A stretch of 64,000 nucleotides of DNA, from contig CAJFRY010000006.1 in NCBI GenBank assembly GCA_904419545.1, positions 26,609-90,608 of the forward strand. Direction: 5' to 3'. The stretch's first letter is position 1; each line of letters begins with the position of its first letter. The position numbers were made by a program, and so were the translations under genes. The stretch is from Candidatus Woodwardiibium gallinarum (GTDB lineage Bacteria; Bacillota; Clostridia; Oscillospirales; CAG-382). This document shows, piece by piece, positions 8,686 through 61,630 of this stretch. Below the pieces are notes generated by a model. The model saw nothing but the letters and a program-made list of their open reading frames with translations, had not been told where the DNA came from and ran no database searches.

Positions 8686-9549
8686 ATGTTTATATCCGAT
8701 AACTGGACCGATTATCAGCTTCTCGACGCCGAGGGCGGCGAGCGGCTCGAGCGCTGGGGCGACTATGTGCTCATCCGTCCCGACCCGCAGGTCATCTGGC
8801 ACAGCGAGCGCGTCAACCCGTTCTGGAGGAAGGCGCAGGGAATCTACCGCCGCTCGTCCTCGGGCGGCGGCGCGTGGGTGCGCCGGCAGATGCCCGACGA
8901 ATGGCAGATTACCTACCGCGACCTGACCTTCGCGGTCTCGCCGATGGGGTTCAAGCACACCGGCATCTTCCCCGAGCAGGCCGTCAACTGGGATTACATC
9001 GCCGGGCAGATTCAAAACGCCGGGCGGGAGATCCGGCTGCTGAACCTGTTCGCCTACACCGGCGGCGCGACAGTCGCGGCGGCCAAGGCGGGCGCGTTCG
9101 TCTGTCATGTCGACGCGTCGAAGGGCATGGTCGCCAAGGCGCGGCAGAACGCGTCCCTGTCGGGCATCGCGTCCGACCGCATCCGCTACATTGTGGACGA
9201 TTGTTTCAAGTTCGTCGCGCGCGAGGTCCGGCGGGGCAGCCGGTACGACGCGGTCATCCTCGACCCGCCCTCCTACGGGCGCGGGCCGAACGGCGAAAAA
9301 TGGCTCATCGAAGAGAACCTCGACGGACTGGTGCGGCTCATCACGCAGGTACTGTCCGACGACCCGCTGTTCGTCATTCTCAATTCCTACACGACGGGGC
9401 TGTCACCCTCGACCTGCGGGTTCATTCTGGACAACAATATCACCCGCCGCTTCGGCGGCCATACCGAGAGCGGTGAATTGGGACTGCGGCTGGCCGAAAA
9501 CGGCTTCTGTCTGCCCTGCGGCGCTGCGAGCCGTTGGGCAAGAGTTTGA
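8686..9549 (+). CDS. class I SAM-dependent methyltransferase (RlmI C-terminal-domain-like)
   Basis: Starts MFISDNWTDYQLLD after RBS gaggaaaagg. SAM-binding LNLFAYTGGATVAAA and DAVILDPPSYGRG motifs are present. The ORF-track start at 8509 overlaps ruvB and was rejected. Confidence 0.75.
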   Translation: MFISDNWTDYQLLDAEGGERLERWGDYVLIRPDPQVIWHSERVNPFWRKAQGIYRRSSSGGGAWVRRQMPDEWQITYRDLTFAVSPMGFKHTGIFPEQAVNWDYIAGQIQNAGREIRLLNLFAYTGGATVAAAKAGAFVCHVDASKGMVAKARQNASLSGIASDRIRYIVDDCFKFVAREVRRGSRYDAVILDPPSYGRGPNGEKWLIEENLDGLVRLITQVLSDDPLFVILNSYTTGLSPSTCGFILDNNITRRFGGHTESGELGLRLAENGFCLPCGAASRWARV

Positions 9550-9603
9550 AGGGTGAAGTCCTTCAAACTCTGCAAGTTTCCGCCTGCGGGCGGAAACTTG
9601 CAG
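9541..9603 (+). repeat. two abutting perfect hairpins (12-7-12 and 15-4-15) overlapping the methyltransferase stop codon; a diverged member of the three-hairpin element family
   Basis: AGAGTTTGAAGG-gtgaagt-CCTTCAAACTCT and CTGCAAGTTTCCGCC-tgcg-GGCGGAAACTTGCAG. The geometry and the CTGCAA...TTGCAG arms resemble the elements at 37697 and 60892. Confidence 0.6.
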
Positions 9604-9660
9604 ACTTAAATCCACCGCTGCGCAAAGCGGCAAAATCCATTATACCGAAGGGACCACAAG

Positions 9661-27715: not shown

Positions 27716-27817
27716 AAAAAACTGTACAAAAACCGAGCATAAACAGATTTTGAGCTGCCTTTTGCCGAGTATAATTATATGGATTATGCAAAGGTCTTTG
27801 TATTATTGCGTTTAAGT
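27716..27817. repeat. dispersed intergenic repeat family 1, copy A (one 32-bp core unit)
   Basis: aaaaaactgtacaaaaaccgagcataaacagattttgagctgccttttgccgagtataattatatgg...attgcgtttaagta aligns with 38522-38701 and 41399-41436. Confidence 0.7.
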
Positions 27818-29175: not shown

Positions 29176-29593
29176 CAGTATATCCCCTTATATGTATATC
29201 AAATCGAAGTTAAAAACCTCGCACATTTTCTATTATAGGATACCAGCCCGCGCACAAAAAGTCAAGGGCAAAACGCCGCCGGCAGAAAGTTTTAACAATA
29301 TCAATATATGCCTATACGCCGATTGCGGTGTTAAACTTCGCGAAATCGGTCAACCCTAAATACGCGGGGAGAACGCTATGCATCATCGCGCCTCTTGATT
29401 CCGTATATGAATTTCGGGATTTATTAAAATTCTGTTTTTTATTGACTTGCATTTAATCACATGTTATGCTTTAGATAATAATATTTTGGTAGAAATTGCC
29501 TCATCTGCAAATTACGGCTATCGCCGATTACACATAACAAATCTTATGATTTGAAAGAAGGATGCTTTCGCTGCGCGAAAGCCATCGCACATT

Positions 29594-30705
29594 ATGATAA
29601 AATCAGTTTTTTCTTGCCGTAATCATTCTCTTATCTTTTGGCGCAGCACCCGCATCCGCTATGCCGGTCACATCGGACATTCCTATTTCCGACATAAACG
29701 AAACGTATTACAAAAAAGATTATATAACCTCTGCAACATCTGAAATTTCTGTATTGGCAAATAGAATACCCCTAAGCGGTTCAACTGTATCTGTTCAAGC
29801 CATATCCAACGACATTGTATTTTCAACCCCGGAATATGTTCCGAACAGCAACGACTGTTTAACATCAGAGCAGATTGCATATAATTATAGAAGAGGCGCC
29901 GCCTTTTGAAGAAATTGCCCCATACCTTGTCGAAGGCGGCGAGGACTACATAGACGCGGATACCGTATGGAACAGCTTGATGACCGAAACAGTAGCGATT
30001 TCGGATAATCGTACAAGAGTCAATCCAACAAATACAAGTCCGTATAACCGAATCGGGCTGGTCGTCGCTTGGTATGACAAAAATGAGAACGGTCAGTGGG
30101 ATGCCGGCGAGATATCCAAGGGCTCAGGTTCTTTGCAAGGCCCGGATGTTGTTTTAACTGCCGGACATGTAATCATGACGGATGGCGTATGGTCGCATAG
30201 AGTCTATTATTATCCGGCTAAAAACGGAACCGGTTCAGACGCTGCAGGCGAACCGTACGGACAGGCGACTTCTATTGCATGTTATGTCAGTTCAAATTGG
30301 GCCGTTGTCGGCGGAAACTCGAATTACGATTACGGCATTGTGGTGATCAATCGCAACATAGGCGCATTAACAGGCTACAACGGGAAAGCCTGGACCAGCG
30401 GCTCGCTGGTCAATAAAGCCGTCACGATGACGGGTTATCCCGCCGATAAGACCGGCAGTCTTTCCGAGACGATGTGGAAAATGTCCGGTACAATAAAAAG
30501 TGAAACGGCTTACAAAATTTATTACGACATTTACTCAGCCGGCGGCAGCAGCGGTTCGCCCGTTTACGACTCCTCCAATGTTGTGTGGGGTGTTCATACG
30601 TTCGGAAGCTCGCCCTACAACGGAGGCATACGGATCACGGAAAGCATATACAACTTATTGCAGACAAAGCTCGAAGAGGGCTTAAACCGGTATTACGGAT
30701 CATAA
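29594..30705 (+). pseudogene. secreted V8/glutamyl-endopeptidase-like (S1B) serine protease split over three reading frames
   Basis: Frame A: ATG at 29594, MIKSVF. Frame B (after the T6 run at 29607-29612): (F)LAVIILLSFGAAPASA signal peptide plus a pro-region, to the stop at 29907-29909. Frame C (open from 29863; TTG at 29875): catalytic domain with LTAGHV and GGSSGSPV. Both junctions need a +1 shift. The region is low in GC. Confidence 0.5.
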
Positions 30706-35910: not shown

Positions 35911-35958
35911 CGGCAAACAGAAAATCGGCTTGGAGCCGATTTTCTGTTTGCCGAATAA
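35911..35958 (+). terminator. 19-bp perfect hairpin after the APH gene
   Basis: GGCAAACAGAAAATCGGCT-tgg-AGCCGATTTTCTGTTTGCC. The downstream U-tract is weak. Confidence 0.5.
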
Positions 35959-37604: not shown

Positions 37605-37644
37605 CAAAAAAGCGTATGGAGCAACCGTCTCCATACGCTTTTTA
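37605..37644 (+). terminator. rho-independent terminator of rbr
   Basis: AGCGTATGGAG-caaccgt-CTCCATACGCT followed by TTTT. Confidence 0.85.
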
Positions 37645-37696
37645 CCGTAGGCAGCCCTGTTCTCCAAAGCAAAGCCGCACGAAAAAATGTCATGCT

Positions 37697-37800
37697 ATTT
37701 CTTGATAAAACGGTTTTCAGCCGTTTTATCAACCGCGGCAAATGTCGCGGCCTGCAAATCCGAACGGATTTGCAGGAAATAAATATTGTACGGCATATTC
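37697..37800 (+). repeat. three-hairpin intergenic element, copy a (candidate structured RNA or regulatory cassette)
   Basis: P1 TTGATAAAACGG-ttttcag-CCGTTTTATCAA. P2 CCGCG-gcaaatgt-CGCGG. P3 CCTGCAAATCC-gaac-GGATTTGCAGG. Then AAATAAATATTGTACGGCATATTC. About 85% identical to 60892-60998. Confidence 0.75.
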
Positions 37801-37911: not shown

Positions 37912-38484
37912 ATGCATTCTATTATCAACCCTTGCACTGGAATCAGGATTGCGGTGCACAAAGGATAAAAAATTGAAATTACCGATATAAAGGGCGGACA
38001 GGTTGTCGATTTCTTCGCTGAAATGCAATGCGACGATGCCGAATTTCTGTCTCCGGGGGTTACCATCGACTGCAATGCGTCATTGCGCATACGGGTCGGA
38101 GATCTGCTCTATTCCAATAAATACAGACCGATGCTCCGCGTTTTATATGACGACGTCGGGGAGCACGACCTACTGCACCCCTGTTGCCGGCCTGAGATGT
38201 ATGATTTCTTTTATCACAATGGCAAGGGACACCCGAACTGCTTGGACAATATCAACAAGGCGCTGGGAAAAACGCGCCCCAATCTGCTTCCCGTTAATTT
38301 ATTCATGCACACAAGGATCAACGCAGACGGAAGCATCGAAGTGTGCGAGCCTTTATCCGAAGCAAACGATAAAATTGTCCTTGAAGCACTGGAGGATATG
38401 GACCTGGGAATCGCCGCGTGCAGTGTTTCTGAAAGCGCCTGCAACGGCGGAGCCTGTACCGCCGTTGCGGTCAAGGTAGAGTAA
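37912..38484 (+). pseudogene. DUF1989 (urea-carboxylase-associated-like) gene with an in-frame TAA at 37966-37968
   Basis: MHSIINPCTGIRIAVHKG-TAA-KIEITDIKGGQVVDFFAEMQCDD... is continuous in a single frame. RBS aggggg lies before the ATG at 37912. The downstream 153-aa ORF (38023-38484) lacks the family N-terminus. Confidence 0.55.
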
Positions 38485-38540
38485 CACGCCAATTTTTACG
38501 GCATTTGCTTAAGCGTAATGCAAAATTGCACAAAGCCTAC

Positions 38541-38644
38541 GCATAATCAGATTTTGCGATGGCTTTTGCCGAGCATAATCAGATTTTGCGATGGCTTTTG
38601 CCGAGCATAATCAGATTTTGCGATGGCTTTTGCCGAGCATAATC
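38541..38644. repeat. perfect 32-bp tandem repeat, 3.25 copies (core of repeat family 1, copy B spanning 38522-38701)
   Basis: The unit gcataatcagattttgcgatggcttttgccga starts at 38541, 38573 and 38605 with no mismatch. A partial fourth unit (8 nt) runs into cttatataatggg. Confidence 0.95.
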
Positions 38645-38899
38645 TTATATAATGGGCCATACGAAGGTTTTGCGCCTTACCGTTTGATTGCGTTTTAAGT
38701 AACGGATACAGTTTCCGAAAAGGCCTCCCTGTGAAAAAAGCTGTCAGCGAAGCGGACTGAGAGATTTACGCCCCCTTTCGTCCCTGCGAGGCGCCTCACC
38801 TTATACACAGGAGGCTTTGGGGCAGCGGTATACTGCACGGCATACGCAGTAAGTGTATAATAAAGCGCCTTTATAATCTGTTCGATAAATAAGAAGTGG

Positions 38900-39370
38900 T
38901 TAAATCATTCTAATCGGGAAAAACATATAATTCTTTCCGTTTAGGGGACAGCAAAAATCGCATACGGCTCCAACCAAGGTGAGATTATTCGCCTTCATAT
39001 AGTCTAATACCTCCGAAAATGTATTATCATTTTCAACCTCAGCGTAAATGGATTCATAGCCCGGAATTGTCCATTTTGTCCATCCCTCGGGCGCTTCGGC
39101 ATCATCAATACATTCAACGCCGGCAAGGTATAACCCTTTGCTGAAGTTATCTTCCCACGGTTTGTATAAACGGGAAAAATCGGACATTGCGCCCCAAATA
39201 CCAACCAAATTGCCATTTTCGTCTTTTTTGGCTAACGGCTGAACTTCACTGAAATGAGAGTTTGCATCCGACCATAATTTTTGAATAAATCCTTGACCCT
39301 CCAAAGTTGAACCTTCTTTACCAATCACAACAAAAGCATTCTTCGTGTATTTTTCAATCCTCATACGCAC
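38900..39370 (-). CDS. GyrI-like (AraC effector-binding/SOUL-type) small-molecule-binding domain protein
   Basis: 156 aa. MRIEKYTKNAFVVIGKEG...WTKWTIPGYESIYAEV pattern. The gene is low in GC relative to its flanks. Confidence 0.6.
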   Translation of the reverse strand: MRMRIEKYTKNAFVVIGKEGSTLEGQGFIQKLWSDANSHFSEVQPLAKKDENGNLVGIWGAMSDFSRLYKPWEDNFSKGLYLAGVECIDDAEAPEGWTKWTIPGYESIYAEVENDNTFSEVLDYMKANNLTLVGAVCDFCCPLNGKNYMFFPIRMI

Positions 39371-44638: not shown

Positions 44639-44700
44639 GTACGATTTCTTGATAAAACGATCTGAAACCGTTTGATTCCCTGCGACAAAGGCCGCCAAAA
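44639..44700 (+). repeat. degenerate copy (c) of the three-hairpin element
   Basis: gtacgatttcttgataaaacgatctgaaaccgtttgattccctgcgacaaaggccgcc shares the 5' flank tacgatttcttga(c/t)aaaacg with copy b, but its stems are decayed. Confidence 0.45.
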
Positions 44701-45044
44701 AAAATCATCTTCCGGGCCCGTATTCTTGCAAGACTTCGCAAACGGGTGCGGACGAAGGATAAAACCGATTGCACAAGCGTTTCAAAAAGTGAAAGCGCAT
44801 AACGTTTCTGCAATCTCATCAGACGAAAGCGTGCCACCTTTTTTCAAACGGCGGAGGGGCACGGACAACGGAAAGATCTGCCGTAAAACAGCACCCTCGA
44901 CGGAACGTTCACCGCAGGGCGGCAAACCTCGCAAGCAAATCGGGGAATGATAAAGCCTTCACCGCAGGTTCCCTGATGTGCCTCGCTGAAATGGAATGCT
45001 TATACGCTCTTCATCATTTCCGCTTGGCTTCAGGCAGACAGATC

Positions 45045-51031: not shown

Positions 51032-51114
51032 GCGATTGTGGCGGAACTGGCAGACGCGCACGTTTGAGGGGCGTGTGGGTAACCGTATGGGTTCAAGTCC
51101 CATCAGTCGCACCA
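51032..51114 (+). tRNA. tRNA-Leu (anticodon GAG), class II with long variable arm, CCA encoded
   Basis: Acceptor GCGATTG/CAGTCGC. Anticodon stem CACGT/GCGTG with loop TT-GAG-GG. T arm ATGGG-TTCAAGT-CCCAT. Ends in ACCA. Confidence 0.9.
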
Positions 51115-51675: not shown

Positions 51676-52053
51676 ATGAATTTTAGAAATTCAAAACACA
51701 GTATCAGCTTTACAGACACAATCAGAAAAAAGAACAAAAAGGATTATGCCCTCATGTCCGCCCTTTATCTTCTAACAGCAGAGTTTGCATTGTGGCAAAC
51801 CGCTAAACGATATGCCACAGACAATTCAATTGATTTTAAAAGTCTGCAGCCTGCCGGAATCAGTGAAAACGGCTACACTTTGTTTTGCGCCGCCAAAGAT
51901 TTATACCTTGGTACTAATTATCTCACAATCAGCGACCTCGCAGACACACAGCTGATACCTCCGAGAATGTTTGCCCTTATTTGTAACGCTATGGCAATCA
52001 GAAGATTCGGGCTTAGTGCAATTCATTTTGAGCAAAGGAGTGATAAAGAATGA
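51676..52053 (+). CDS. hypothetical protein of the kind seen in Firmicutes conjugative elements (possibly DUF6075-like; family name from memory, unverified)
   Basis: 125 aa. MSALYLLTAEFALWQTAKRY...YTLFCAAKDLYLGTNYLTISDLAD...AMAIRRFG. Confidence 0.5.
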   Translation: MNFRNSKHSISFTDTIRKKNKKDYALMSALYLLTAEFALWQTAKRYATDNSIDFKSLQPAGISENGYTLFCAAKDLYLGTNYLTISDLADTQLIPPRMFALICNAMAIRRFGLSAIHFEQRSDKE

Positions 52054-52526
52054 TTACAGCAACGGTGAAACACAACGACAATTATGCAGATATTGAATTC
52101 CCCTGTAGTGAGGCGTACCTGTCAGCTAAACTTATGGAAATTCATGTTGATGACTTAAGCAGCATAACACACTATATTTCAGCCATTACAGAGCCAAAGG
52201 AACTGTCGTTTTTAAAAGACCGGTTGGTCAATCTGGATGAGCTGAATTACCTTGCGAAGCGCATGGATAGTTTTTTCGGAGATGAAGAAACTCAATTTTT
52301 TGAGGCGATAAAACTGGAACATTTTACGGAGATGAAAGATTTAATCAATCTGACTTTTAATCTCGACAAATATACCCTGATAAAAGATGTCAGCGATATT
52401 GGACAGCTCCGTATTCTTCGATATGCCGGACGGCGTCTTTGCCCTGTGCCGAGAAATCATAAAAGGAAATCTTTCTCCACACCGTTTGTCGGAAGAACAG
52501 AAATTTCTTTTTTCCAAAGCGCTTGA
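52050..52526 (+). CDS. hypothetical protein; the C-terminal ~46 aa look non-native (possible recombination scar)
   Basis: 158 aa. 4-nt overlap with the upstream ORF. The tail RILRYAGRRLCPVPRNHKRKSF is Arg-rich and overlaps the next ORF in another frame. Confidence 0.4.
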   Translation: MITATVKHNDNYADIEFPCSEAYLSAKLMEIHVDDLSSITHYISAITEPKELSFLKDRLVNLDELNYLAKRMDSFFGDEETQFFEAIKLEHFTEMKDLINLTFNLDKYTLIKDVSDIGQLRILRYAGRRLCPVPRNHKRKSFSTPFVGRTEISFFQSA

Positions 52527-52848
52527 AAATAAGCTGTTCATCAAAAACGGGGACGGATTCCGGCAGAACTACTACTTTATTGAAAAGCAAGAACGGAAGC
52601 AATTGGAACAGCTTGCATATGCCTTTTATCCGCAGGCAAACAGGTACTTTGATAAGGCATATCGGCAGATATTCAATGCATACAAAACGATGGTTCCGAA
52701 GCGTCTGCATTGGCAGATGGGAAATTTTTTGTCCAATTTCCTCGGGCATTTCATCACCTGCTCGCTCTACGAAGGCATCCGAAACCATATCCTATCCGAA
52801 CCGGATGAAGCCAACAGGGAGTGGCTGAGCCTCTTCGCGTCCGAATAA
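52387..52848 (+). CDS. hypothetical protein
   Basis: 153 aa. The ATG follows tandem in-frame stops TGA TAA immediately. Composition is coding-like. Confidence 0.45.
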   Translation: MSAILDSSVFFDMPDGVFALCREIIKGNLSPHRLSEEQKFLFSKALENKLFIKNGDGFRQNYYFIEKQERKQLEQLAYAFYPQANRYFDKAYRQIFNAYKTMVPKRLHWQMGNFLSNFLGHFITCSLYEGIRNHILSEPDEANREWLSLFASE

Positions 52849-60785: not shown

Positions 60786-60891
60786 GCCTTGCCCTGCGGC
60801 GGCCGATAGGGCCGCTCCAGTCCGTACGCCCATGTTTCAACACGGTTCCGCACCGAAGAACGAACAGCAATTCTATGTTTTGGGATAATAA

Positions 60892-60998
60892 TACGATTTC
60901 TTGACAAAACGGTTTGAAGCCGTTTTGTCAACTGCGGCAAATGCTGCCGCTTGCAAATCCAAAAGATTTGCAGGAAATAAATATTGTACGGCATATTC
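60892..60998 (+). repeat. three-hairpin intergenic element, copy b
   Basis: P1 TTGACAAAACGG-tttgaag-CCGTTTTGTCAA. P2 GCGGCA-aatgc-TGCCGC. P3 CTTGCAAATC-caaaa-GATTTGCAGG (one U-G pair). Then AAATAAATATTGTACGGCATATTC. Confidence 0.75.
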
Positions 60999-61048
60999 AC
61001 CGGCTTCGACCAGGGCGTCATTCGAATGAATCCGGAGGTGCAAATTGG

Positions 61049-61630
61049 ATGCATACATTCAGACATTGTCCATATTGCGGGGGAACTCTAAAATTTTCCC
61101 ATAAACACACCTGTCCGCACTGCCGGCAGCGCTACGGGATTCTGTACAGCCACTGGCCGGCGGTGCTGCTTCTGCTGAGCGGTTGTCTCCTCATAGACTG
61201 GCTCGGTCTGGTTTACACGAGGTGGATCTGGCTGGGGATGCTTCCCTATGCAGCCTTCTGCCTGCTTTTCATCTTCCCGCGGATCTGTCCCAAATATTCC
61301 AAAGCGTCCGTTCAAATGTCGGAATTCGAAAGAGCCGGAACGCCGGGCGCACAAGCGCTGCGTTTTGTTCCCGCATACCGCGCCGAAGCGAACACCGTAA
61401 AGCGGCTGCGGCGCGGCGACGTGCTTCTGCCGACAGGAGACCTGCGCTATGTATTACCACCGGTCTTGATCGCCCGTATAGAACGCAGACACAAGACTGT
61501 CTACTTCGCCTATTCGGATCATTCGGACAGAGCGGAAACGTCCGTAACGTTTCAAAATGAATACGGAACGTATCGGTTTGCAAAAATACAGCGCTTCTGT
61601 CCGCAGGGTCAAACCGGCCTGTCTGCATAA
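61049..61630 (+). CDS. zinc-ribbon membrane protein (hypothetical)
   Basis: MHTFRHCPYCGGTLKFSHKHTCPHCRQRYG (CxxC...CxxC), followed by two TM helices and a soluble C-terminus. RBS ggaggtg 10 nt upstream of the ATG at 61049. Confidence 0.6.
   Translation: MHTFRHCPYCGGTLKFSHKHTCPHCRQRYGILYSHWPAVLLLLSGCLLIDWLGLVYTRWIWLGMLPYAAFCLLFIFPRICPKYSKASVQMSEFERAGTPGAQALRFVPAYRAEANTVKRLRRGDVLLPTGDLRYVLPPVLIARIERRHKTVYFAYSDHSDRAETSVTFQNEYGTYRFAKIQRFCPQGQTGLSA

Follow-up and report, generated by a model that had tools for sequence, protein, structure and literature searches.

A repeated three-hairpin module with an invariant AU-rich tail in intergenic DNA of a gut Clostridia lineage

The window studied herein, a 64-kb stretch of DNA from Candidatus Woodwardiibium gallinarum taken at its full length, belongs to the ordinary core chromosome and encodes, among others, RuvAB, an ECF transporter, TruA, a Clp ATPase, ThrRS, and RNase J. 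The bacterium is prevalent in the gut, and 558 blocks of the assembly collection list its rubrerythrin protein. Two intergenic spaces of the window carry copies (A and B) of one module, arranged as plus-strand direct repeats 23.2 kb apart, and a third space carries a partial copy (C). The module comprises a short ATTTC end, three hairpins (P1, P2, and P3), and a 24-nucleotide (nt) tail. The relevant features are as follows, where R1 denotes a covariance model built from four full copies.

37605 to 37645, plus strand: hairpin and T-run (aaaaaagcgtatggag...ctccatacgcttttt), read by hand as the rubrerythrin terminator; unflagged by the terminator scan
37697 to 37800, plus strand: copy A, full module (fold z -7.6; R1 131.6 bits), consisting of ATTTC 37697-37701, P1 37702-37732, P2 37733-37750, and P3 37751-37776, followed by the tail
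37777 to 37800, plus strand: tail of copy A, AAATAAATATTGTACGGCATATTC, single-stranded
37913 to 38484, plus strand: DUF1989 gene downstream of A (Pfam, translation)
38495 to 38504, plus strand: a weak lead, the core-like motif TTTACGGCAT, 10 nt past the stop codon of DUF1989
38834 to 38843, plus strand: core-like motif TGCACGGCAT, the same variant as in sister lineage L166; a weak lead
44640 to 44715, plus strand: copy C, a decayed partial copy (blastn, alignment, R1)
60881 to 60889, plus strand: possible extended -10 box TGgGATAAT, read by hand by analogy with locus L140; unflagged by the promoter scan
60892 to 60998, plus strand: copy B, full module including TACG (fold z -7.1; R1 133.7 bits), consisting of TACG 60892-60895, ATTTC 60896-60900, P1 60901-60931, P2 60934-60950, P3 60951-60974, and tail 60975-60998
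61049 to 61630, plus strand: gene for a 193-amino acid (aa) protein of no Pfam family, downstream of B (gene call)

Copy A lies behind a Fur-family/rubrerythrin gene pair (rubrerythrin being assigned by Pfam). It begins ~50 nt past the rubrerythrin hairpin and T-run, and its tail ends 112 nt before the start codon of the DUF1989 gene (37913). This gene is interrupted here by an in-frame TAA at 37967-37969; an intact 190-aa form occurs in the same context in a few strains. Copy B is found ~107 nt past a gene for an Ig-like surface protein, and its tail ends 50 nt before the start codon of the 193-aa gene, which has a strong GGAGG ribosome-binding site. The original prediction placed the copies just upstream of plus-strand genes and downstream of terminators. 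The former is right for A and B but not for C, which sits between convergent genes; the latter is right for A, judged from the hand-read hairpin that the scan left unflagged, but not for B, upstream of which no terminator-like site was found. Neither pair of flanking genes is related: rubrerythrin and the Ig-like protein gave a BLASTP E value of 1.6, and the DUF1989 and 193-aa proteins one of 0.044 over 19 aa. At all five loci known for the element (A, B, C, a ferredoxin-linked copy, and L140, a locus of another species), it is preceded by the 3' end of a co-directional gene. The genes adjoining the copies include those for rubrerythrin, ferredoxin, a Clp ATPase, an Ig-like surface protein, and DUF1989.

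Aligned by blastn, A (37697-37800) and B (60896-60998) are 88.5% identical over 104 columns (E = 2e-33), in line with the ~85% first estimated. The segment 60892-60998 initially assigned to B is indeed homologous, but the alignment starts at 60896, and the four extra nucleotides are the TACG that B has in common with copy C and the short form of the element at L140. The 24-nt tail, which had been recognized as identical in both copies, occurs exactly twice in the window (none expected from shuffles). The identical stretch at the 3' side in fact reaches 34 nt rather than 24, because it takes in the 3' arm of P3. All differences between A and B (11 substitutions and one indel) fall within the first 70 nt.

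Both copies are predicted to fold into three adjacent hairpins, at -52.2 kcal/mol for A (z -7.6) and -43.6 kcal/mol for B (z -7.1), and none of 200 shuffles was as good in either case. The shared three-hairpin layout described earlier is thus borne out. Stem lengths in A and B are 12-14 bp for P1, 6-7 bp for P2, and 8-12 bp for P3. In the best fold of B, 5' GAUUUC additionally pairs with GGAAAU located after P3, thereby closing a cloverleaf-like junction. The fold of the minus strand is slightly weaker than that of the plus strand. In P1, two changes lie in the loop and one pair (columns 26/48) is converted from U-A to C-G; this is the paired T-to-C and A-to-G change noticed at the outset, and it is a true double change. 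In P2, the 5' arm is kept and three changes in the 3' arm shift the register, so that a 6-7-bp hairpin persists in both copies despite the altered sequence, as had been claimed. In P3, three changes open the top of the stem and one creates a U-G wobble in B. The C-to-T change behind this wobble had been taken to make sense as plus-strand RNA only; the pair is there, but the wobble asymmetry does not give a strand, and the balance of G-U against A-C cells in the element alignment favored neither strand.

Random placement of 11 substitutions and one indel in the 5'-most 70 nt of A gave folding energies averaging -26.9 +/- 4.8 kcal/mol, with just 1.0% of the trials reaching the -38.5 kcal/mol of B for that region. 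Starting from B, 0 of 3000 trials reached the -47.1 kcal/mol of A. Since random changes rarely keep the fold, the hairpins are retained well beyond neutral expectation (p ~0.01 and <0.001, respectively). Palindromes can correct themselves through template-switch ("quasipalindrome") mutation, for which no RNA function is needed, so retention of hairpins is in itself no proof of RNA. Moreover, a covariation test on six sequences found one pair changed on both sides, and 388 of 500 shuffles did as well. The proposal that the compensatory changes represent RNA covariation is therefore not upheld. Nonetheless, a three-hairpin module with an invariant AU-rich tail is real, and its hairpins are kept. 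A coding function was rejected: reading frames are open on both strands, yet the copies differ in frame owing to a 1-nt indel in P3, and the frame shared by B and the L140 homolog is lost directly after the tail.

Two more diverged relatives had been proposed in the window. That at 44639-44700 corresponds to copy C (44640-44715), which is related to B (79% over 57 nt, E = 6e-9 by blastn) but partial and decayed. It retains TACGATTTC, the 5' arm of P1, and a remnant of P2; P3 is absent, the tail is degenerate, R1 scores it at 17.5 bits (E = 0.2), and it has no stable fold (z -0.5). The other, at 9541-9603, gave no blastn match to the element even at E = 10; the region 9541-9607 forms two to three very stable hairpins of unrelated sequence. 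Altogether, three copies were found in ~71 kb, and about five loci overall. The original prediction had looked for additional copies and for statistically supported covariation; additional copies exist at these few loci, and the covariation is not significant.

The element was compared with known families. Rfam 15 at the gathering score detected only a tRNA (51032-51111) in the whole window, and scans with relaxed thresholds, run on the A and B regions as well as on homologous loci, returned sub-threshold noise alone. No hairpin of the element was flagged as an intrinsic terminator on either strand by the scan; P3 is followed by AAAUAAAU. These results agree with the early impression that no known riboswitch or terminator class is matched. 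By inspection, the tail did not fit the consensus sequences of sigma-54, sigma-H, sporulation sigma factors, or ECF factors, and no fit was seen to Rex, cre, PerR/Fur, or CodY operators. A promoter inside the tail, on either strand, was also discarded: on the minus strand, TACAAT is accompanied by a -35 box at A alone, and inspection showed no such box at B, L140, or L166. The Bacillus-type Ter/RTP consensus is KMACTAANWNNWCTATGTACYAAATNTTC (PMC3317982); the tails match 17 of its 25 specified positions, a score equaled by three unrelated sites in the window, no GC-skew switch was found, and this candidate was dropped.

All same-species assemblies fetched that span copies A, B, and C match them at 100% identity (four assemblies for B), and no presence/absence polymorphism was seen among these assemblies. 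In lineages with 86-87% rubrerythrin identity, no module was found in 120 kb of loci. There, rubrerythrin is directly followed by a convergent ortholog of the Ig-like gene that precedes B. Orthologs of the genes upstream of A and of B thus adjoin in relatives, which places A and B at the two sides of a synteny break. A lineage with 92% rubrerythrin identity also contained no module, and R1 found no more distant copies in 295 kb of related loci. The 193-aa gene has nine homologs among 5.8 billion proteins. Its sister-species ortholog (77% identical in aa) is part of an operon, with a 22-nt spacer and without the element. Because this ortholog has no such leader, and because A and B precede unrelated genes, a gene-specific riboswitch or leader was rejected. 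Searches of genome, viral, plasmid, and phage collections yielded no further copies: the 16-mer ATTTCTTGAYAAAACG, a pattern too short for a genome collection of 596 Gb, gave chance matches alone; the tail and P1 had no matches in viral collections, where a 16-mer gave only chance matches in unrelated phages; and blastn of the element found no matches in plasmids and phages. L141, a JGI contig with a 21-nt stretch of the tail, was set aside, since it represents a low-GC unrelated context at a contig end and ~0.5 chance matches were expected. The module, found at few loci, is probably low-copy, and it is lineage-restricted. The unrelated flanking genes, together with the absence from related lineages and from the sister ortholog, suggest that it was copied into intergenic sites rather than inherited with its neighbors.

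A short form of the element occurs in another species (loci L140/L138), whose adjoining Clp gene is 76% identical in DNA. It has the ATAATACGATTTC start, the 5' arm of P1, a P2-like hairpin, and the identical tail, followed by 26 further nt in common with B; P3 is missing, as is the 3' arm of P1 at L140. The tail is identical across species although the adjoining conserved gene is only 76% identical. At L140, the short form starts 7 nt past a sigma-70-type promoter matching at 11 of 12 positions (TTGAAA-18-TATAAT). A hairpin and T-run lie ~110 nt past the tail and ~185 nt from the start, and no convincing open reading frame is present. The promoter-proximal part of this homolog shares with B the stretch ATAATACG, which contains the possible -10 box of B. 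The scan flagged no promoter upstream of B, and none that is convincing was found immediately upstream of A or the ferredoxin-linked copy.

The core of the tail can also be found without hairpins. In a lineage with 97% rubrerythrin identity (L165-L169), CTTG(T/C)ACGGCATTTTCCCCGCATTTC lies 40 nt past the rubrerythrin stop codon; the core TTGYACGGCAT is present, and the hairpins and AAATAAATA are not. The ~30 nt after this core resemble the post-tail DNA of A and of a second core copy at L140. The hairpin-less core occupies an apparent 3' untranslated region, after rubrerythrin in L166 and after the Clp ATPase gene at L140 site 1. These comparisons indicate that at the rubrerythrin locus the core is older than the hairpins. 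Given the presence of the core without hairpins in the 97% lineage, the hairpin module looks to have been added later beside a pre-existing core, or converted from a B-like donor. No conserved structure was found within the 30-60 nt following the core in A-type flanks, and in B-type flanks only a UUGUAC/GUGCAA pairing, with no covariation.

We favor, tentatively and with somewhat less than even confidence, the view that the element is a leader or small-RNA module transcribed from the plus strand and copied between intergenic sites, like a putative mobile promoter. This view is suggested by the invariant unpaired core, by hairpins that vary yet persist, by the constant co-orientation with the gene upstream, and by the promoter and terminator at L140. 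Of the options offered originally, a mobile leader cassette or a small RNA fits best, considering the unrelated downstream genes, the absence in relatives, and the L140 signals. Putative mobile promoters (PMPs) were defined, operationally and with no mechanism implied, by non-coding homology over 50 nt or more at 80% identity or more, where neither the upstream nor the downstream genes are homologous; most PMPs have no Rfam match (Matus-Garcia, Nijveen and van Passel 2012, PMC3488235). A and B reach this identity (88.5% over 104 nt) with non-homologous flanks, and the element likewise has no Rfam match. Relative to the PMP window of -150 to -50 (PMC3488235), B spans -157 to -51 and A spans -216 to -113 (start codon at 37913). 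Unlike PMPs in general, the element has a conspicuous three-hairpin architecture, and its promoter activity is putative. A second parallel is provided by the aprE and ermC leaders, 5' stem-loop stabilizers of mRNA in Firmicutes that are gene-specific and not repeated. As in these leaders, a stable hairpin lies a few nucleotides from the presumed 5' end, upstream of a ribosome-binding site; in contrast to them, the element is repeated, and its transcription start site is a predicted one.

A possible but rather unlikely alternative is a selfish, non-autonomous interspersed DNA repeat comparable to BOX, RUP, or REP elements or to a MITE, spread by transposition or illegitimate recombination. Any effect at the RNA level would then be incidental, and the hairpins would reflect recognition at the DNA level or self-correction of palindromes. 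Orthologous sites in three related lineages are without the element, copies lie at synteny breaks, and copy C is decaying, as such a repeat would have it. Moreover, unrelated left flanks (those of A, of B and C, and of the ferredoxin-linked copy) share a 5' boundary within ~2 nt, and modules vary, with P3 missing in C and L140 and the 3' arm of P1 missing in L140. Against this, the element has neither terminal inverted repeats nor a clean target-site duplication, no transposase or recombinase occurs in the 64-kb window (Pfam-scanned open reading frames, with gene tables for the remainder, gave no transposase, integrase, or resolvase), there are only about five loci, and same-species assemblies are not polymorphic for its presence. 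Nor would a selfish repeat account for the unpaired tail being better conserved than any other part, even between species. The sequences at the two ends, ATTTCTTGA and GGCATATTC, do not form an inverted repeat, and all inverted repeats are internal hairpins, so a classical MITE was rejected. With regard to target-site duplication, the left flank bears an imperfect direct resemblance to the core, and the relatives without the element are too diverged to align as empty sites.

REPs are single palindromes of 20-40 nt with a conserved 5' tetranucleotide, present in high copy and linked to a RAYT gene. The element resembles REP, BIME, and REPIN sequences (REPINs are also covered in PMC8049555) in being extragenic palindromes after gene ends, with an orientation bias and possibly recognized as hairpins. 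A REP/BIME system with RAYT was rejected, as there are three copies in ~71 kb and about five loci overall, and window scans revealed no transposase. The pneumococcal BOX, RUP, and SPRITE repeats are reported to have spread extensively through the chromosome (Croucher et al. 2011, PMC3049150). Like the element, they are short intergenic sequences of strong secondary structure and modular build, in which individual copies combine different sets of modules. They also resemble it in their restriction to one species and its closest relatives, their slow transposition, and the likely effects of their structure on co-transcribed genes. The element differs in the small number of loci found (~five) and in having an unpaired tail as its most conserved part, and no likeness in sequence would be expected.

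It is less probable still, and in our judgment distinctly unlikely, that the copies form a family of trans-acting small-RNA genes, of which the invariant tail is the seed for target mRNAs and the hairpins are scaffolds. An invariant unpaired core joined to variable, structure-preserving hairpins is the usual small-RNA pattern, and the L140 homolog is stand-alone, with the promoter, the terminator, and the lack of a convincing open reading frame that would be expected of such a gene. A and B do not share these properties; in neither does a terminator lie within the 112 nt (A) or 50 nt (B) that separate the tail from the following start codon. In addition, complementarity to targets in the window is limited to short matches, and the core also occurs hairpin-less in the apparent 3' untranslated regions of L166 and L140 site 1.

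Evidence of another kind comes from variants (L142, L143, and L144) that a metagenome scan recovered along with L140 and L138. L142, a 95.6%-identical strain version of the B locus, has four differences in the element, located in the P1 loop, the 3' arm of P1, and the P1-P2 junction or P2 loop; P3 and the tail are invariant. At 96.3% identity, the element is no better conserved than its flanks, and one difference leaves a C-A mismatch in P1. L142 B also carries a 20-nt patch identical to copy A. In L143 and L144, a ferredoxin gene and a terminator take the place of rubrerythrin in front of copy A and the DNA downstream of it, with the switch point inside P1; past P1, there is one difference from A in ~700 nt (99.9%). 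These contigs are ~1.3 kb long (L143 at ~1.9x coverage) and differ from each other inside the ferredoxin gene, and the junctions may reflect true recombination or, alternatively, chimeric assembly through shared k-mers. The motif TNYACGGCAT has five matches in the window versus 1.03 expected, a number reached by none of 100 shuffles, and four of the five (A, B, 38495, and 38834) are intergenic and on the plus strand. The match at 38834 (TGCACGGCAT) lies ~60 nt past the 3' end of a minus-strand gene (38900-39370). The product of this gene has a weak match to Cass2 (E = 0.003, below the cut-off), which denotes a GyrI-like fold only.

Such observations could be accommodated by a DNA-level site, in which the core TTGYACGGCAT with its flanks is a protein-binding or att-like recombination sequence, the palindromes are accessory binding sites, and recombination would shuffle neighboring accessory genes; we regard this as very unlikely. 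In one version, to which we likewise attach little credence, (GGAAAT)AAATATTGTACGGCATATTC as core together with the hairpins would be an att-like site for swapping accessory genes behind terminators in this lineage. An att-like site would explain the position of A and B beside a synteny break relative to relatives, the ferredoxin junction within P1, the A-type patch in L142 B (as expected from gene conversion), and the enriched motifs, whose plus-strand copies bracket DUF1989 and the next intergenic segment. The left flanks also weakly resemble the core (TACG..ATTTC versus TACGGCATATTC). However, the window encodes no recombinase, homology between loci runs 26-30 nt past the core instead of stopping there, L143 and L144 could be chimeric, and the core lacks dyad symmetry. 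Taken individually, moreover, the two extra motif copies are within chance, as an 11-mer core with one mismatch is expected about once per window. If true, the cassette system would lack an integron-type attC site and, in the window, any nearby recombinase. An integron attC consists of one imperfect palindrome between RYYYAAC and GTTRRRY boxes and is accompanied by a nearby IntI integrase; the three separate hairpins, which by inspection show no such boxes, and the lack of an integrase in the window speak against it. No resemblance was seen to the dif/Xer site of Firmicutes. A and B were also rejected as the ends of an integrated island, since the intervening genes are of ordinary metabolism and no integrase is present. 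A simple A/B inversion was rejected because the copies are direct repeats and the Ig-like-adjoining end of B is wrong for that model. The element is not a gene-tied riboswitch, a terminator, a classical MITE, a REP element, or an attC site.

Under the favored reading of a mobile leader or small-RNA module, the element would be transcribed from the plus strand, the same as that of its flanking genes, and would form the 5' part of a leader or small RNA, with transcription starting at or just before the ATTTC end. The RNA would possess three stable 5' hairpins, in which pairing but not sequence is kept, and an exposed, invariant, single-stranded AU-rich core, AAAUAAAUAUUGUACGGCAUAUUC. In Firmicutes, 5' stem-loops shield mRNAs against 5'-end-dependent decay, and the hairpins may insulate and stabilize the transcript. 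The core might then be recognized in cis by a protein or another RNA, and within copy B its UUGUAC would be able to pair with GUGCAA beside the ribosome-binding site.

The number of copies is small and the phylogenetic range narrow, and the finding opens no long-standing question. The 24-nt invariant core is a possible bait for a binding protein or RNA. If the favored reading is true, the element would be a structured non-coding module not described before, carried by a prevalent, uncultured lineage of human-gut Clostridia, and a concrete case of a regulatory or leader sequence being re-used before unrelated accessory genes.

The DNA around copy B of the three-hairpin element (60892-60998), which lies upstream of a gene for a 193-aa protein (61049-61630, plus strand), contains the motif (T)GCAAAT at three places:

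60937-60942, P2 loop of copy B
60952-60958, 5' arm of P3 of copy B
61040-61046, after the ribosome-binding site of the 193-aa gene and ahead of its start codon

As the motif is present next to this start codon as well as in the P3 5' arm, the translation-initiation region of the 193-aa gene could be an alternative pairing partner for the 3' arm of P3.

The gene downstream of copy A (37697-37800), which encodes a DUF1989 protein (37913-38484, plus strand), is interrupted in the window strain by an in-frame TAA at 37967-37969. The truncated product, 153 aa long, has entries in 550 blocks of the assembly collection. In a few strains the gene is intact and encodes a protein of 190 aa (P0121), in an unchanged gene context. 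The following features lie beyond this gene or are related to the repeat found there:

38541-38644, perfect tandem repeat of a 32-nt unit, GCATAATCAGATTTTGCGATGGCTTTTGCCGA, with three full units in the window
27737-27776, related copy of the repeat (85%), about 10 kb from the array
29563-29598, inverted partial match to the repeat (75%), about 10 kb from the array
38900-39370, minus strand, gene for a 156-aa protein in a low-GC stretch just beyond the array

As the number of units ranges from one to at least four among same-species assemblies, the intergenic array after DUF1989 is a variable-number repeat. The 156-aa protein has a sub-threshold match (E 0.003) to the Pfam family Cass2, which has a GyrI-like fold and is described as an "integron-associated effector binding protein".

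Elsewhere in the window, a second, apparently broken gene and further hairpins were found:

51676-52828, three short ORFs of low GC3 (counterpart in the same-species assembly L137, 1763-3373)
51032-51111, tRNA gene just upstream of these ORFs
9541-9640, three strong hairpins in a row (z -7.1) in the gap that separates a SAM-methyltransferase gene from ecfA, which encodes an ABC ATPase
35911-35953, inverted repeat, CGGCAAACAGAAAATCGGCT/AGCCGATTTTCTGTTTGCCG, with perfectly matching 20-nt arms around a 3-nt loop, between APH and acetyltransferase genes

The three ORFs match a single 536-aa protein of L137 with sigma-70 region 4 domains, and the gene appears to be broken in the window strain. The hairpins at 9541-9640, none of which (0/3) is followed by a T-run, bear no sequence relation to the three-hairpin element and may constitute a second hairpin array. 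The inverted repeat is the longest hairpin of the window.

In the sister lineage (L166-L169), a systematic assembly break directly adjoins the core motif, TTGYACGGCAT. The region of interest spans about 220-430 nt past the rubrerythrin stop codon, and all contigs shown (up to 140 kb) stop at most about 430 nt past rubrerythrin, inside or just short of an extremely GC-rich, hairpin-rich stretch. One of these contigs contains poly-G/poly-C artefacts.

A relative of the 193-aa protein is found in another assembly (L161, 4957-5358) as a 133-aa ORF, the C-terminal part of which is 77% identical to that protein and is preceded by an N-terminal serine-recombinase domain (Resolvase, PF00239). This fusion suggests that the family of the gene downstream of copy B travels near recombinases in other genomes.
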